From: a virus
Lineage: Duplodnaviria; Heunggongvirae; Uroviricota; Caudoviricetes
Reading direction: 5' to 3' (one strand)
DNA length: 6,866 nt
Virus record (IMG/VR): IMGVR_UViG_2529292909_000014
Shown here: in pieces, positions 1 to 6,866 of the stretch
How the letters are laid out: each line of letters starts with the position of its first letter
Numbering within the stretch: the stretch's first letter is position 1
Notes under the pieces: model-generated
Told to the model about the DNA's origin: nothing
Seen by the model: only the letters and a program-made list of their open reading frames with translations
Database searches by the model: none
Made by a program: the position numbers and the translations under genes

Positions 1-206
1 TTATTGAAATTCAAGGGTAAAGGTTGCCGAAGCCCTCACCAGTCCCGGATTGACGGACTTCTGAGTTGACTTCAGACGAGCGGAGTAAGGCAAAATATTG
101 TTCTGTTCTGGTACCAGTGGGATCCACTGCATCCCGGCATGAAGATCATTCAGTTTCACCGGACGCATATTTGCGTCCAATATTTCTATTATAGCGCGGC
201 GATTTT

Positions 207-273
207 TTTGATACCGATTTGCATTTCATTTGATACCGCTGAAAAACGCCGATACGCAACTTATTTGATACTA
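207..273. repeat. Three direct copies of TTTGATAC (starting 207, 229, 264) plus a degenerate CCGATAC (249), downstream of the mom-like gene
   Basis: Read directly: tttgataccgatttg / tttgataccgctg / ccgatacgc / tttgatactaaatcggcg. Function unknown. Confidence 0.35.
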
Positions 274-317
274 AATCGGCGCTTTTCTTTTGAGTTTTAG
301 AATGAGTTTTTAAGCGT

Positions 318-1055
318 TCATTCACTCTCTTTCAAACCAGTTTTAACTGTTTGTGGTTTTGGGTAAGGCTGGACTTTGAATAGCTTTGTGTTAAGGCGTT
401 TTCTGGCTCTCTTGTCCAGAAACCGGATGTAACGAAACTGACGGAATTTATGAACACTGGCTCTGTCGATATTAGCCCGCAGATGTTCACCTCGCTGTCC
501 TCCTCGTTTGATTGCATTCTTGCAAATCTCGTGATACCACTCGCCATCAAGTTCATAGAATGTTGTTTCATGACTGCCTACATAATCAAAATTGCTTGCC
601 TGGTACACGACACCAAGACAGCCACAACGCTCATCTGCAAACGACTGAACCCACTGCACCTGCGGATAAAGTTGTCTGATTAGTTTGAGCGCGTAACTGA
701 TTGCCCTTGATTCGGAGTTTCTCGGCATACAGTCATGCAGCCATAACCGGTTAAGCTCCATATATTCGCGGTTCTGCGTGCCAGTTACGACGCGTGCACC
801 ATTGTTTGGATTAAGGGCATAACCCCATTGCATTACGCCAACCAGCTCCCGTTCTGAAAATATGCCCAGATGAAGGTAGGAATTATTTACGAAACGATGG
901 CTGTAATGTTTATTGACGACGACCAGCCGGGCCAGCCAGCAACTTATTGTCTCAACCCGTAACTCACGGGAGCCATAACCGACGATATTGTCGTTATAGT
1001 GAATAAGTTCAGGCGTGCTGATGATACGGGATGTAACTTGCTTTCTGTTCCCCAC
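318..1055 (-). CDS. mom: Mom-like DNA modification (anti-restriction) protein, about 245 aa; proposed GTG start at 1055
   Basis: Long minus-strand ORF immediately downstream of and overlapping the com homologue, as in phage Mu. The track ORF starts at ATG 1250 but would overlap com entirely; there is no in-frame ATG after com. GTG at 1055-1053 is preceded by AAGGA about 9 nt upstream and gives a Mu-Mom-like size. Identity rests on com linkage and size, not on aligned Mom sequence. Confidence 0.6.
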
Positions 1056-1209
1056 GACAGGATTTCCTTGTGTATGTGGGGTGCTCTGTGGCGCTCTGAG
1101 ATGTGATTTGATTGAGGGTTTTACAGCGCGGACATTTAACTTCCAGATAACTGAAGCTGGCTCGTGCCAGTAGCTTGTTACAATGTCGGCACCGTATGTT
1201 TCGATACAT
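1009..1209 (-). CDS. com: Com-like zinc-finger translational activator of mom, 66 aa
   Basis: [14 protein letters not shown]...EVKCPRCK...EHPT matches the phage Mu Com pattern (IRCKNCNKLL...IRCPRCK...EHPT) as recalled. Strong SD AGGAGG about 8 nt upstream of ATG 1209. The 81-aa track ORF from 1254 is an in-frame upstream extension without an RBS. Confidence 0.85.
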
Positions 1210-1252
1210 GGCCGCATAACCTCCTGCTTTGTTGTTGATATCTTTATCACTC

Positions 1253-1277
1253 AATCGATCGACAAAAACGATCGATT
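1253..1277. promoter_or_regulatory. Perfect 9-bp inverted repeat AATCGATCG-N7-CGATCGATT with two Dam (GATC) sites, 44 bp upstream of com; third GATC (TGATCA) at 1339-1342
   Basis: Palindrome read directly. In Mu, mom transcription depends on Dam methylation of upstream GATC sites (established knowledge), so a methylation-sensitive operator is a reasonable inference. Confidence 0.45.
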
Positions 1278-1465
1278 TGATTTATTTAATTGATACAACA
1301 AATAACACGAAATGTCATTAGCGAAAATTTATGAGTTTGATCACTAATTTTAAACGGTGCTGTAACGCATAAGTGCTGAATGATTGTACATTTGAATACC
1401 GCAAAGCAAACAAATCAACTAATTTATAGAAGTCAATTGGTTAATTGCCAGCGTAAGAGGCTGCT

Positions 1466-1759
1466 ATGGACAATCATGTAACGACGAGAAATCGAAAAAT
1501 GATTGAAAATGCGGAAATCTATAATGATTATTTTTCCGATTATTCAGATGCCTGCAAATACAGTTCGAGTGCGGGAGAGTTCATATGCTTCAACTTTTTT
1601 ATTAAATCTTATGTTTTTCCTCCACAGCAAGAAGATGGAGGTGTGCCACCTCCTGAAATCACTTTGCACCGTATAGCCTCCGTCTCAATGATGGAGCAAC
1701 AGGCTAATGAGCTGTATAGCATTCTGGGAACGATTCTACAAAAGCGTGAATCGGACTAA
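1466..1759 (+). CDS. Hypothetical protein, 97 aa, divergent from com-mom
   Basis: ORF with SD AAGAGG 6 nt upstream of the ATG; no recognisable motif. Confidence 0.5.
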   Translation: MDNHVTTRNRKMIENAEIYNDYFSDYSDACKYSSSAGEFICFNFFIKSYVFPPQQEDGGVPPPEITLHRIASVSMMEQQANELYSILGTILQKRESD

Positions 1760-1893
1760 TGATACCGGTTCATTTGCCTGCCCGGATGGGGAAGCAGGAT
1801 TGACTGCTCCATAAGCAGCTATATTTCTGAATACGAAATACTATCCAGCGATTACATATGGCTGGATAGCGGCAAAGATGTTTTCATTAGTGT

Positions 1894-1921
1894 CAAACCG
1901 GCAGAGGACACCACCGGTTTG
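1894..1921. terminator. Stem-loop CAAACCGG-N12-CCGGTTTG 5 nt after the stop of the 84-aa gene; a second hairpin CTATCCAGC-N11-GCTGGATAG lies at 1841-1869
   Basis: Inverted repeats read directly; no clean U-tract on either strand, so terminator function is uncertain. Confidence 0.3.
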
Positions 1922-1926
1922 TATTG

Positions 1927-2181
1927 TTACATCATGGTACTGTCAGTTCCGGGCTGAGCCGGGTCTGGTTGCTCTGGCTGCGCGTCGGTTTTCGGCTCAT
2001 TATCAGCATCACTGGCCGCAACTGCTGGCCCAATAAGTTTTGCCAGCACTTCATCAACGTAAGTGTCGATTTGTGCCTCAAAATCCTTGCGGACCTGCGC
2101 TTTCAGCAACTTATTTACTTCACCGGAATACAGTGCCTGTTTTACCAGGTCTTCAGTGACGGTGCCTTTAATTTCTGGCAT
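1927..2181 (-). CDS. Hypothetical small acidic protein, 84 aa
   Basis: Strong SD AAGGAGGA 6-7 nt upstream of the ATG; helical N-terminal half, acidic and Pro-rich tail. Confidence 0.65.
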   Translation of the reverse strand: MPEIKGTVTEDLVKQALYSGEVNKLLKAQVRKDFEAQIDTYVDEVLAKLIGPAVAASDADNEPKTDAQPEQPDPAQPGTDSTMM

Positions 2182-2216
2182 GTATATCCTCCTTATGCGG
2201 GAATAAAGCCCTGCAA

Positions 2217-2420
2217 TCAGGGCTGGGTCGGGTCTTTTGGGAGCGGAGTTACCTGCGCTGTTTTACTGAGTTTTTCAGCTGCTGCGTCCTCAATTTTGCG
2301 GCGAACATAATTTCTGATGGCCTTATAACCACCACTCACCAGATATAACGCACATACTGCCGTGCAGAAATACAATAAATAAGCTGTAAAAATGTCATTA
2401 TCCCTCCCAATTATTGACAT
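2217..2420 (-). CDS. Hypothetical small single-pass membrane protein, 67 aa as written; start uncertain
   Basis: Hydrophobic stretch FTAYLLYFCTAVCALYLV followed by basic residues; sits 35 nt upstream of the 84-aa gene. ATG 2420 has no good SD, whereas ATG 2398 has SD GGGAGGG but is one base out of frame (see findings). Confidence 0.4.
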   Translation of the reverse strand: MSIIGRDNDIFTAYLLYFCTAVCALYLVSGGYKAIRNYVRRKIEDAAAEKLSKTAQVTPLPKDPTQP

Positions 2421-2494
2421 GGTGTTGACACCGGTAATATCTGTTAGGTAAAAAGGTGCACTGCATTTTTTGCTTTGGATATAACGATCTTTTT

Positions 2495-2535
2495 GCCGCC
2501 GGTTTCTTGTTTTCCCTTACCGGCGGCATTTTTTT
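2495..2535 (+). terminator. Rho-independent terminator, plus orientation: GCCGCCGGT-N15-ACCGGCGGC followed by T7
   Basis: 9-bp GC-rich stem followed by ATTTTTTT on the plus strand; on the minus strand the stem is followed by AAAAAG, so it is unidirectional and opposite to the flanking genes. Confidence 0.6.
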
Positions 2536-2542
2536 ATCCTGC

Positions 2543-4597
2543 TTACGCGTTATTCACTTCCACCACGATACTGTCAATCAGTACCGGGTAAGTCGCATTT
2601 TTAGTGATATCGGTCACGCGCAACTTGTCTGCCGTAAACGTGCCGACCGGAGACTGCGACAGCATGAATGGTGTCCCGTCCTTACCATCAATGACCGGCG
2701 TCACCTCAATACTGTTGTTACCGGCAAAACGGAAGCCCAGCGTATGCCATTCGTTATTAAATGCGCCGAATGACCCCAGCTTCGTGTTCTGCGCCGTGTT
2801 TCCTTTGTGATACATCACGTTAAGGTCTGTGGCATCGCTCTGTACGTAGAACGATGCCAGCAGGTTATGACCGGCATTTCCTTCCAGAGTAACCCCTTGC
2901 GGCAGGGCAGAAACCGGCCAGTACAGCGCCAGTGCGTACTGATTAGCCGTAAGCGCGCCATCGAGTTTAAAACGACAACTGACAAGACCACCTTTACCCA
3001 GCAGGTCCGCACCATTACCAGCATCATGCTCAAGGTACCAGGGGGCTCTTCCTGTTTCCTTGGTCAGTTTCATTGCCTTACCCCCGCTGGCTCCGGCATC
3101 ATCCACGATTTGAGCCTTGCCACCTCCGGCAGCCCAACCCTGTGGTGTCAACCGTCCTTCAGACTCAGATGCCCGGTAAGCAAATAGCGTACTCATCGTC
3201 GTGGTGTCTGCGGGTGGCGTGGACGGTTTTGATGGTGTATCAGGTGACGGCTTCTCATCCGGTGGTGTCACGGTCTGCCCGCGCATCAGTTCAGCCGTGC
3301 GCCCTGCATGGAGCATAATAGCTGAGGCCAGACGGTCTGAAATGACGCCCCTGCGTGCCCATGAGCTGAAATGGCTGTCACGCTGTGTCGAAACAAAACT
3401 GCCCTGGGTTCGGGATGCTGCACCGTAATACCCGACAGCCACAATATCCGGGTCTTCCGCCGGAGCATTCGTTGGCGTGCTCTGTCCATTCTCATCCGTC
3501 AGGAACGGTACAAAGAAAATTTTCTGTGCTTCCTTGCCTTTGTAGCCACCGTATACTGCCTCATATTTATCGGTGCCAGCGTTTTTCCAGTAATACGTGG
3601 TATCACCGCAAATCCACGGCACCGTGGTGGCATTTCCACTCACGCACTGCGCAGCAAGCGGAGCCAGGTCAGTTCTGAACTGCTGAACCATGGCCGTGAA
3701 TAAACTATTATGCTGCTGGCTTCCTGAGGCAAGGTCTGCCTCTCCCTGCATCCAGACCACAGCCAGAAGTTTGTTTTCGGGTTTTTCGCCAGCGCGACTT
3801 TGGTGCGGCTTACCAGGTCCTGATACAGAGGTTTACCGGCCCCCCAGCGTGAAGAATCAGCGGAAGCACCGCTGGCCTCACTGAATGAGCCGTCGGCTCC
3901 AGTGGTGAATGCTGACCCGCCACGACAACAGGGCACCAGAAGTATCCCGGCATTCTGTGGGATATAGGGAAGCAGTTTTTTGGCAATATGCAACCCCTGA
4001 CCGACAGTTCCCGTACTGGCCTTTTGCCAGATCAGCTTTCGGGTGGTTTATCCCGCTCATATCCTGAACATCATGCAGGCAGTGGTCTGCCGGAATGATG
4101 TCGTTGTATGTACACGACGTACCGTTGGGCGTTACCGTACTGCGGCGTGCCAGTTGCTTAATGCGTGGGTCCGGGCGGTCAAACGAATCCGGTAACGGCA
4201 GCCCCTCGCCGTAGGCCATGCCATTTGACTGACCCGCGAGAATGACAACAAAGTAATATTCCGGCTCTGAACTGCTGCCATTCGTGCTACCGGAAGGCCC
4301 GGCGTTATCCGGTGCATTCCAGTCGGAGGGCGTGAGCGTTCCGGCCACGTCAGATGTGATTGGAATGATGCCAGTCACGCCTGAACTGGTGATTTCTGCA
4401 CTGGGATTACCGGATACCGGCATTACCCATAATGGCTCTTTCGTGCTGAAGCGGATCACGCAGTCTGCGAAGGTGATCCCCCCTTTATTACCCGAAGGGC
4501 GGAAAGGGCTTTCAATAAATGCCACCGTGCCACCGGCAACCTTGACTGAAAACTCTCCGGGCATGGCGGAGAGCATTTTCCACTTGGAGTCTGACAT
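2543..4597 (-). pseudogene. NanS-like sialate O-acetylesterase (SGNH/SASA family) with N- and C-terminal extensions; reading frame broken twice
   Basis: Track ORFs 3878..4597, 3640..3993 and 2543..3760 join into one protein carrying NanS-type motifs (ILAGQSNGMAYGEGLPLPD, VPCCRGGSAFT, VVWMQGEADL, GDTTYYWK, NAPAEDPD, SHFSSWARRGVISDR). Frame breaks: a 1-bp insertion near 4008-4012 and a 1-bp deletion in the T-run 3774-3777. Confidence 0.8.
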
Positions 4598-4672
4598 CGT
4601 CTTTTCTGCCTGTTTCTGAATTAAACAGAGTCAGAATAGCGACCGCTGAAAAATATGTGTTTTGCGGAAATT

Positions 4673-4702
4673 CAAAAAAGCGTCACGGTACTTTTGGTGA
4701 CG
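4673..4702 (-). terminator. Possible terminator at the end of the invertase gene: CGTCAC-N10-GTGACG followed by CTTTTTTG
   Basis: 6-bp stem overlapping the invertase stop codon, followed by a U6 tract on the minus strand; the stem is short. Confidence 0.35.
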
Positions 4703-5253
4703 GAGCTGGTGAGGCAGGAAAATAACGATAAAGGGTGGAAAGGCCAATATCAAATATCAGTGCGATTTGTTTACGGGACTCGCCATTAGCCAGCAAACGG
4801 GCGATTTGCTCCCGCTCTTTCTCTGTCAGTTTCTGAGGTCTGCCGCCATGACGCCCTGAGCACGGGCAGCAGCAAGACCCGCGCGTGTACGTTCAATAAT
4901 GAGTTCCCGCTCCATTTCCGCCAGCGCGCCCATTATATGGAAAAAGAAACGTCCCATGGGAGTGGATGTATCAATATTGTCCGTAATGCTGCGGAAGTTA
5001 ACGCCGCGTTGCCGGAGTTCTTCTGTTAAAAGGACAAGGTGCTGCATACTGCGTCCAAGGCGATCCAGTTTCCAGACCAGCAGGGTATCCCCTGGCCGGA
5101 GTCGCTTTAATGCGCGTTTAAGTCCGGGACGCTCCCTTGTCTTACCGCTTATTCTGTCTTCGAAAACAGCTCACATCCTGCACATTCCAGCGCATTTCTT
5201 TGTAGCGCCGTATTCTGGTCATTTGTTGACACCCTGATATACCCAATCAGCAT
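4683..5253 (-). pseudogene. Hin/Gin/Pin/Cin-family serine DNA invertase, disrupted by two 1-bp deletions
   Basis: Three frames read MLIGYIRVSTNDQNTALQRNALECAGCE / FEDRISGKTRERPGLKRALKRLRPGDTLLVWKLDRLGRSMQHL...FFFHIMGALAEMERELIIERTRAGLAAARAQG / GRHGGRPQKLTEKEREQIARLLANG..., together a full-length invertase. Deletions lie near 5161-5170 and 4850-4860. SD AAGGA upstream of ATG 5253. Confidence 0.85.
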
Positions 5254-5318
5254 ACGATTTCCTTATTATAAAAAGCCGGAATTGTCGCATGAGGAATAAA
5301 ACAGAGTTAATCCTGGCT

Positions 5319-5344
5319 TTCCTGAAAACCTCGGTTTACGGGAA
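5319..5344. other. Invertase crossover site, left: TTCCTGAAAACC-TC-GGTTTACGGGAA
   Basis: 26-bp imperfect palindrome; the left half differs from the hixL half-site TTCTTGAAAACC at one position and the whole site resembles gix. It lies 66 bp upstream of the invertase start. Confidence 0.7.
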
Positions 5345-5400
5345 ACGGTAAACAGGGCGGCGAATGCTCTGCCATCGGACGGCACCGCCGTTGCCGCGAA
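5333..5400. repeat. Inverted repeat, left arm (68 bp, one mismatch to the right arm)
   Basis: The reverse complement of 6580..6647 matches 5333..5400 except position 5368; patchy similarity continues inward to about 5451. Confidence 0.85.
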
Positions 5401-5692
5401 TAGACTCGCCACCCCAAGAAATATTAATGGGGTTCCCTTTGACGGGACGAAGGACATAAACATCACTTCTGGTATAACACAGCAGGATGCGGATTCCCGA
5501 TATATCCAGGATATCAGGCTGGGAGCAGAGAACAGGCAGGTAATGTACGGTGGGGCATATTACTCTGCGTACGGTAATGTTATGGCAGGCCTGCAGATTG
5601 ACAGTAAAGTTGATGCTTCAAACGATTTTATAGCATTCAGACCCCTGCAAAAATTAGTCGGAGGTACATGGATTACGGTATCTCAGTTATAA
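5342..5692 (+). CDS. Silent alternative tail-fibre C-terminal cassette (no start codon; expressible only after inversion fuses it to the constant part)
   Basis: Plus-strand frame is open from the crossover site to TAA 5690-5692 and encodes ...[40 protein letters not shown]...; no ATG or RBS at its 5' end; followed 51 bp later by tfa. Confidence 0.65.
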   Translation, partial: ETVNRAANALPSDGTAVAANRLATPRNINGVPFDGTKDINITSGITQQDADSRYIQDIRLGAENRQVMYGGAYYSAYGNVMAGLQIDSKVDASNDFIAFRPLQKLVGGTWITVSQL

Positions 5693-5743: not shown

Positions 5744-6265
5744 ATGGAACTAAAAAATATAACCCGTTATTATCCTGAAAATATGCCATATGGTAATAAT
5801 GTTCAGTATTTCCAGAGTGAAGATGGTAAGGATTTCTACGAATCCCTGCCATTATTCACCAAAAAATATAAACTTTGCATAACACCTGACAGCGGCGTTA
5901 TCTGCTCAATATCACAGGACGCCTCGGCGCTGTATCCTGCGGGGTTTTCTGTGGTTGAGGTCGATGAACTCCCTGAAGGCACGGATATTTCAGGAAACTG
6001 GAAGTTTGATAATGGCATAATCTCCCGTATTCCGGTTAACTACGCAAGAAAACTGGAAGCAATGCGCCAGTCATATCTTAATCAGGCATATGAAAAAATT
6101 AATGACTGGAGAACGGAGCTACAACTGGGCACCATCAGCGATGAAGACAGAGCAGCACTTACCCAATGGATGGCATACATCAGTCAGGTGAAGAAAATGG
6201 AACTACCCGCCATTAAAACAGAAGCTGAATTTAACGCCATTAAATGGCCTGAGCAGCCACAGTAA
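5744..6265 (+). CDS. Tail-fibre assembly protein (Tfa/U family), 173 aa
   Basis: SD CAGGAGGA 6 nt upstream of the ATG; C-terminal ...DWRTELQLGTISDEDRAALTQWMAYISQV...IKWPEQP fits the conserved Tfa C-terminal pattern. Confidence 0.85.
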   Translation: MELKNITRYYPENMPYGNNVQYFQSEDGKDFYESLPLFTKKYKLCITPDSGVICSISQDASALYPAGFSVVEVDELPEGTDISGNWKFDNGIISRIPVNYARKLEAMRQSYLNQAYEKINDWRTELQLGTISDEDRAALTQWMAYISQVKKMELPAIKTEAEFNAIKWPEQPQ

Positions 6266-6296: not shown

Positions 6297-6866
6297 TTAT
6301 ATACTTGCAGCCGTCACCCATGCTCCATTTAACAGATACTGCAACGGCCGGTAATACACGCCGCCGACGTTATCTGCCGTATTCTTACCGACATCCTGTA
6401 CTTTAATTCCGGTAAGAACATTGCCGCCCCCCAGATTCAGATCCCAGCTTTCCCATGTTCCGGGCATATGTGCGGTCACCGACCCCAGTCTTATGGCGGT
6501 TACTGTTCCTGATGAGATAGTGATATCCTGCGTCCCGTCAAAGGGAACACCATTAATTGTGTGGGCATTTGCCAGCCTGTTCGCGGCAACGGCGGTGCCG
6601 TCCGATGGCAGGGCATTCGCCGCCCTGTTTACCGTTTCCCGTAAACCGACGTTATCGATAAAAGCCCCTTTATCCGGAATGTCTGCGCCGTTCTGCTCCC
6701 TGCGCAGGTAACGGTTATCACCTTCGCTTTTGCTGTAAACATCCAGATTATTACGGGCGGTTCCCTTATTCTCCAGGTCGGCGAGATTCTGATCCTTCGC
6801 CAGGGCATTAACGTCAGCGGGACCAAGACCGTTTTTTGTGGCAAGCGTCCCCAGACCAAGATAACC
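6297..6866 (-). CDS. Tail-fibre protein, 3' part (5' end beyond the window), carrying the currently expressed tip
   Basis: Minus-strand frame is open from the window edge to TAA 6297-6299: [54 protein letters not shown]...[42 protein letters not shown]...AASI. Typical tail-fibre motifs; the crossover site is embedded at codons GLRE. Confidence 0.85.
6580..6647. repeat. Inverted repeat, right arm (68 bp)
   Basis: Reverse complement of 5333..5400 with one mismatch. Confidence 0.85.
6636..6661. other. Invertase crossover site, right: TTCCCGTAAACC-GA-CGTTATCGATAA
   Basis: Inner half is identical to the left site's inner half in inverted orientation and the core dinucleotide is complementary; the outer half has diverged. 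Lies inside the tail-fibre coding sequence. Confidence 0.65.

Follow-up and report, generated by a model that had tools for sequence, protein, structure and literature searches.

A NanS-p-type sialate O-acetylesterase gene carried by a Mu-like prophage, with frame breaks that are probably sequencing artefacts

The closest described systems are the chromosomal sialate O-acetylesterase NanS of E. coli and the NanS-p esterases of Stx-converting phages. NanS catalyzes with Ser19 and His301, forms its oxyanion hole from Gln18 and a glycine, and has no catalytic Asp (PMC9063846). Its conserved block IV, like that of NanS-p, is reported as RSSH or RASH; in Stx phages DUF1378 and DUF826 genes follow nanS-p, with the esterase-DUF1378-DUF826 trio lying downstream of stx, and the aromatics Y510, Y515, Y540 and F611 have been proposed as the sugar site of the lectin-like domain of NanS-p (PMC10462455). 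The homologue in phi24B, gp84, is a capsid-decorating protein in which DUF1737 acts as a hexameric capsid anchor, and the esterase part is later cleaved off this anchor (cryo-EM preprint, bioRxiv 10.64898/2026.04.10.717836).

Here we consider a window of 6,866 nucleotides, by which we mean the whole stretch of DNA that was analyzed, carrying on its minus strand (2543..4597; 2,055 nt including the stop codon at 2543-2545) a nanS-p-type sialate O-acetylesterase gene that is frame-broken as sequenced. The explanation that we favor, with a probability of roughly 0.78, is that the gene specifies a NanS-p esterase carried as cargo by a Mu-like prophage of E. coli inserted in ydeS, and that its frame breaks are artefactual.

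Domain structure of the repaired esterase

As sequenced, the gene is listed as three overlapping open reading frames on the minus strand, 4597..3878 (239 aa), 3993..3640 (117 aa) and 3760..2543 (405 aa), which the original prediction had joined into one protein broken by an insertion (~4008-4012) and a deletion (3774-3777) that cancel in length. We aligned the window base by base with the intact 2,055-nt orthologues in two related loci, L001 (4104-6158) and L002, and both lesions were found, with the three pieces aligning as a single protein. The two lesions are private to the window, and the one remaining variable column of this alignment is a substitution private to L002. The first lesion is an extra base at 4008..4009, T to TT on the plus strand and A to AA on the gene strand, where 6/6 near-identical copies and 13 metagenome contigs have a single T. 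The second, at 3774..3777, is a contraction of T5 to T4 (the run is A5 on the gene strand) at which the native frame is regained; here all six near-identical copies have T5. Both sites had been described as homopolymers, which fits the deletion site, a true homopolymer, but not the insertion site, where a single base is duplicated. Since the +1 and the −1 cancel, the gene keeps its net length of 2,055 nt, and repair of both sites yields a 684-codon frame identical to WP_001284083.1, an intact 684-aa protein present in many E. coli. The merged 684-codon frame that had been predicted therefore exists in the repaired gene, but the shifted frame reaches a premature stop at 3878..3880, so that translation as sequenced would end at 239 aa and no merged protein would arise by read-through. 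The out-of-frame stretch, put earlier at about 80 codons, is real; it amounts to 77 codons (native residues 197-273/274), and the shifted frame ends at that stop. The predicted as-sequenced product, 196 native residues followed by 43 junk residues, retains only the GQSN serine block; the CCRGGS, QGE and RDSH blocks are missing from it, as are the linker and the entire C-terminal domain, and it would be inactive.

A megablast search of 5,426 complete E. coli genomes gave at least 99% identity in 22 records; the best complete-genome matches reach 99.9% over 2.3 kb, none reaches 100%, and the counterpart gene in those genome matches is a single unbroken 2,055-nt CDS annotated as 'DUF6645 domain-containing protein'. 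A scan for promoters and terminators around the esterase gene found nothing above chance. Just past the esterase stop codon, at 2494-2528, lies a stem-loop with a strong 10-bp GC-rich hairpin (~−20 kcal/mol, z ~−5), which the terminator scan missed because of its 15-nt loop. A T7 run at 2530-2536 supplies a U-tract on the plus strand only, antisense to the esterase, with an A-run following on the gene strand; the structure might serve to terminate antisense or convergent transcripts.

The central part of the protein was predicted to be an esterase core with NanS-type catalytic motifs, and the alignments to NanS and NanS-p that had been suggested as a check bear this out, as both match. The core is of the SGNH type II / SASA kind and homologous to NanS (3314..4270, minus strand; native residues 110-428): the solved E. 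coli NanS/YjhS structure 3PT5 matches residues 110-428 with E 2e-117 and ~65% identity, and Pfam finds SASA at 1.5e-13 over residues 117-312 of the intact orthologue. The SASA domain was seen only with this intact orthologue as query; the raw ORF pieces gave DUF6645, a SASA match of 0.0017 below the cut-off, and nothing else in Pfam. The repaired protein has all of the GQSN, CCRGGS, QGE and RDSH blocks, and with them the NanS-type catalytic Ser and His and the Gln/Gly oxyanion hole. Ser124 of the GQSN block is encoded at 4226-4228 and His409 of the RDSH block at 3371-3373, both on the minus strand, and Q123, S124 and H409 align with NanS Gln18, Ser19 and His301 (the 3PT5 chain is offset by an 11-residue tag). 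Block IV here reads RDSH, unlike the RSSH or RASH of NanS and NanS-p.

Homologues were found by tblastn in 349 phage records, mainly of Stx-converting phages, at ~65% identity from residue 94 on. A search of NCBIfam profiles gave no match and one of PHROGs returned families of unknown function only, while NCBI already names proteins of this 680-691-aa class 'sialate O-acetylesterase'. The predicted identity as a prophage esterase of the NanS-p type is well supported by homology (Pfam SASA and DUF6645, 3PT5, and the C-terminal structure 6YP6 discussed below), and its activity is inferred. By the NanS mechanism, the core would strip 9-O-acetyl groups from sialic acids: Ser124 would be the nucleophile and His409 the base, Gln123 would form the oxyanion hole together with a glycine, and no catalytic Asp would take part.

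C-terminal to the core, a Pro/Thr/Ser-rich interdomain linker, PPDEKPSPDTPSKPSTPPADTTT, is present as predicted (3197..3265, minus strand; residues 445-467). It leads to a lectin-like jelly-roll domain (2546..3193, minus strand; residues 469-684), which had been foreseen as a beta-rich domain of ~170 aa; the domain is there and is longer, at ~215 aa. Pfam DUF6645 covers residues 533-650 of the intact orthologue at 7e-68, and the crystallized C-terminal domain of phi24B NanS-p (6YP6) matches residues 469-683 with E 7e-98 and 69% identity. All four of the aromatics proposed as the sugar site are conserved, Y554, Y559, Y584 and F654 corresponding to Y510, Y515, Y540 and F611. The suggestion that this domain may bind carbohydrate thus stands, in that it is the very domain for which sugar binding has been proposed and the four site residues are kept. 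Such a jelly-roll would probably hold the esterase on glycans.

The Mu-like prophage and the N-terminal module

The gene had been likened to the prophage NanS-p cargo of enterohaemorrhagic E. coli. It is indeed prophage-borne, with DUF1378 and DUF826 genes downstream, but the prophage is of the Mu-like transposable kind rather than the lambdoid one of EHEC and Stx phages: the gene lies between gin and com-mom and does not follow Q/stx in the late operon of a lambdoid phage. In related loci, Mu-type baseplate genes (Mu Gp45-48) and a tail fibre come first, then an invertible segment for tail-fibre assembly and a Gin-type recombinase; the esterase is next, followed by DUF1378, DUF826 and one small hypothetical gene, and com and mom close the series before the host begins. 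The window has, all on the minus strand, a Gin-type serine recombinase gene (4683..5253, bounds approximate, with two private 1-bp homopolymer deletions at ~4857 and ~5167), a DUF1378 gene (2217..2398, bounds approximate, broken by a private 1-bp deletion at ~2377-2380), a DUF826 gene that completes the trio (1927..2181), and the right-end genes com (1009-1209) and mom (318-1055). The host flank (1..189) is a piece of ydeS, a fimbrial gene, with the prophage/host junction at ~189/190. This flank is 100% identical to K-12-like strains, and the junction itself is found in no complete E. coli genome of the collection.

The Mu-like gene order was seen in eleven related loci whose insertion sites differ, as expected for a transposable Mu-like phage. 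Among the host genes at the junction, which vary by strain, are ypdB, bcsA, a fimD/papC gene, a DUF6531 gene, a motility gene, a molybdopterin-cofactor-binding-domain gene beside xdhB, and a gene for a type I restriction R-subunit of the EcoR124 family. That related copies sit in differing host genes points to recent transposition of the phage. Near the right end of this transposable prophage the esterase is carried as cargo, placed between the gin/tail-fibre inversion module and com-mom. Moreover, since DUF1378 and DUF826 are common to both phage types, the esterase-DUF1378-DUF826 trio behaves as a shared cassette.

Beside the Gin-type recombinase, the tail-fibre-assembly gene (5744-6265) is bracketed by two pairs of inverted repeats, one at 5324-5409 and 6571-6656 (86 nt, 93% complementarity) and the other at 5423-5472 and 6508-6557 (50 nt, 82% complementarity). 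The invertible tail-fibre segment has opposite orientations in L003 and L001, and therefore a host-range switch resembling the Mu G segment is active in the population. The recombinase is retained in the window, L001 and L004-L006, unlike in L002, L022, L023 and L024, which are without gin and the second tail-fibre fragment, have the tail-fibre assembly gene followed directly by the esterase, and are fixed-orientation derivatives of the invertible module. At the other end, a Mu-like phage within an Stx2c phage (L008, LC727881.1) has at 9420-10472, after com and in place of mom, an ORF of 350 aa that on visual inspection resembles a C5 cytosine DNA methyltransferase, which would be a swap of DNA-modification modules at the same locus.

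An N-terminal extension of about 120 aa had been predicted. An extension is present, since NanS homology begins at residue 110 of the repaired protein, but it is not the canonical NanS-p one. Residues 1-94 (4316..4597, minus strand) form a small, predicted all-beta module, which a Gly/Ser/Asn-rich linker predicted to be disordered (4262..4315, minus strand; residues 95-112, pLDDT <50) joins to the core. A Pfam search found no match to PF08410 (DUF1737) at E up to 1 in the repaired or intact protein. By precomputed Pfam assignments, relatives fall into two classes, one of 680-691 aa without PF08410, whose nearest 90% cluster has 599 member sequences, and one of 647-650 aa in which it is present. 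From the core start 'EPEYYF' on, identity between the classes reaches 89-91%; upstream of it they cannot be aligned, and profile-profile comparison of the two N-termini (hhalign) gives a probability of 0.2%. AlphaFold with a shallow alignment gave a moderate model of the module (pLDDT 65) in which, unlike the helix plus 3 strands of DUF1737, residues 7-79 form six strands; the linker at 95-112 is disordered. The core and the C-terminal domain agree with NanS-p in every feature that can be judged from sequence. Since neither a DUF1737 domain nor the lambdoid Q-stx location was found when looked for, we file the gene, judging from its sequence, as a variant of the NanS-p kind that is neither canonical NanS-p nor chromosomal NanS.

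Where does this module occur? A word-indexed protein search with it returned fragments only, and an index-free HMMER search with residues 1-112 against 1.84 billion representatives returned its own fragments and one distant relative (30% identity, E 4e-6). This relative begins a different esterase, whose gene closely follows that of a resolvase, once more in a Mu-like prophage. A third lineage of the module, in the Mu-like phage inserted in the Stx2c phage, is 66% identical overall with gene order unchanged, and gene order is likewise preserved around more diverged E. coli copies. In every locus checked, comprising four diverged lineages down to 30% identity, the module is confined to Mu-like prophages.

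This steady association, together with the anchoring role of DUF1737, makes an alternative virion anchor a reasonable hypothesis: by analogy with DUF1737 on the phi24B capsid, the ~95-aa module may be matched to Mu-like particles, though we hold this only tentatively. The corresponding view of function is that the esterase, displayed on the Mu-like virion through its N-terminal module, acts mainly for the phage, binding or de-O-acetylating mucus or bacterial surface glycans and so aiding adsorption, rather than serving as a soluble, host-feeding enzyme of lysogenic conversion. In its favor are the decoration of the phi24B capsid by gp84 through an N-terminal DUF1737 (bioRxiv 10.64898/2026.04.10.717836), the replacement of that domain here by an unrelated module, the tie of this module to Mu-like phages across its four lineages, and its attachment to the core through a disordered linker; on balance we consider this account of the function possible but doubtful. 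If true, it would make NanS-p esterases modular, virion-displayed glycan-modifying enzymes whose anchor is swapped as an esterase-plus-lectin cassette moves between a lambdoid podovirus and a Mu-like myovirus, and an anchoring role for the module would support the recent idea that such esterases act on the particle as well as for the lysogen.

Origin of the frame breaks

How should the two lesions be read? That they are biological does not hold up well against the pattern of differences in the wider prophage. Positions 190-5300 of the window (5.1 kb) were aligned with the prophage copies of six complete genomes, all nearly identical to it. In this alignment, 5 single-base indels and no substitutions are private to the window, while the six natural copies combined have 1 private indel and 16 private substitutions (Fisher test ~2e-4, calculated by hand from the counts). 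Two of the window's indels are in the gin-type recombinase (~5167 and ~4857), two in the esterase (4008 and ~3778) and one in DUF1378 (~2380), and four of the five are one-base contractions of homopolymer runs of at least 4 bases, although such runs cover just 6.7% of the region (P ~1e-4). An apparent sixth indel relative to L001, at ~4945, is a frameshift belonging to the recombinase of L001 and L003 themselves, the window being intact at that site. The lesions and their error-like pattern are plain in these alignments, and from the indel pattern and the allele counts, a statistical argument, we infer that the five indels, both esterase breaks included, are probably read or assembly errors.

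The main alternative is that the frameshifts are real and that the prophage is decaying, or its host a mismatch-repair mutator strain, so that the esterase is a true null pseudogene of which only a 239-aa fragment is left, with the Ser block and without the oxyanion Gly, the His, the linker or the lectin domain. The lesions are, after all, present in the sequence as given; homopolymers are natural hot spots of slippage; and this lineage does have true prophage frameshifts, as in the recombinase of L001 and L003, along with many partial genes in L001. Natural decay, however, yields mostly substitutions, even in mismatch-repair-deficient spectra, and a substitution-dominated spectrum is the opposite of what the window has. 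Decay would also have had to strike three adjacent genes (recombinase, esterase and DUF1378) at about one indel per kb, and to leave alleles unseen in the 5,426 complete E. coli genomes, in metagenomes and in the public gene catalogue. Specifically, the insertion allele at 4008 occurs in none of the metagenome contigs against 13 for the wild-type allele, and none of the three ORF products that are specific to the frameshifts was found by exact look-up in a gene catalogue covering 153 billion positions; the 3774-3777 deletion allele and its wild type are both unseen in species-representative genome contigs, which lack this prophage. We therefore consider a real pseudogene unlikely.

Some points do speak against the artefact reading. 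The insertion at 4008 doubles a single base and extends no long run; prophage genes do decay, the recombinase frameshift shared by L001 and L003 being genuine; and selection might conceivably account for a frame-restoring +1/−1 pair, a reading that the stop between the two sites speaks against. We rejected as highly improbable a functional role for the sites, either as a programmed ribosomal frameshift pair or as slipped-strand phase-variation tracts that switch the esterase on and off. In favor of such a role are the cancelling lengths of the two shifts and, at one of the sites, a short homopolymer (A5 on the gene strand). Against it, every orthologue, near-identical or diverged, has a single uninterrupted ORF, the length at either site is invariant among natural copies, known contingency tracts are far longer than these 1-5 nt, a stop interrupts the shifted frame, and equivalent indels occur in unrelated neighboring genes.

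A separate and older draft assembly, that of E. coli DEC6C, has, in its copy of this prophage, six private homopolymer indels that differ from those of the window; three fall inside the esterase. Independent drafts with independent errors of homopolymer length, and with no substitutions alongside, bear the signature of read or assembly error. In DEC6C (L025, AIFX01000029.1) the esterase at 6754-8331 is annotated as small hypothetical proteins, ECDEC6C_0002 and _0003 among them, and these proteins are database clutter that homopolymer indels have made out of an intact gene. For the window, reading the indels as errors means that the real gene in the source is probably the intact WP_001284083.1, so that the apparent inactivation of the esterase, as a probable sequencing artefact, should not be counted as a pseudogene. 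More generally, at about one homopolymer indel per kb in the window's assembly, every frameshift and the other 'pseudogenes' of the same assembly are suspect.

Comparison with known systems

In the searchable literature we found no paper that pairs NanS-p with Mu-like phages or names DUF6645, though an earlier description is possible, and none that discusses the replacement of DUF1737 by an unrelated module. The Mu-like form of NanS-p is abundant in databases and the enzyme family is known, and the domain swap is of modest interest; the biological point is that a common form of NanS-p, that of Mu-like prophages, has an unrelated module where the capsid-binding DUF1737 would be.

The right end of phage Mu shares with this locus a Gin-type recombinase, an invertible tail-fibre segment, com and mom, and varied insertion sites; canonical Mu is not known to carry an esterase/DUF1378/DUF826 cassette between these genes, from gin to com. 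Chromosomal NanS (YjhS, 3PT5) has a homologous catalytic domain, the equivalents of its Ser19, His301 and Gln18 are kept here, and both proteins lack the catalytic Asp. However, NanS is a single-domain protein of ~326 aa belonging to the sialic-acid regulon, whereas the 684-aa protein described here is phage-borne, lies inside a prophage, and has, besides its core, an N-terminal module and a lectin-like C-terminal domain, each joined to it by a linker.

The form described here can also be set beside the NanS-p esterases of Stx and other lambdoid prophages (933W L0105/z1466; phi24B vb_24B_21/gp84). The two forms share the SASA/SGNH core, at ~65% identity to the Stx-phage copies and, over the core and C-terminal domain, at up to 89-91% identity to some DUF1737-bearing E. 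coli prophage copies; they also share the C-terminal DUF6645 domain with its conserved aromatic site and the downstream DUF1378 and DUF826 genes, and both are prophage-borne. The lambdoid proteins are ~645 aa long against 684 aa here, where the gene is frame-broken as sequenced; they begin with the capsid-binding DUF1737 domain, in contrast to the unrelated ~95-aa all-beta module found here; and their genes lie downstream of Q-stx in the late operon, whereas this one belongs to a transposable Mu-like prophage of the myovirus type, with gin on one side and com-mom on the other.
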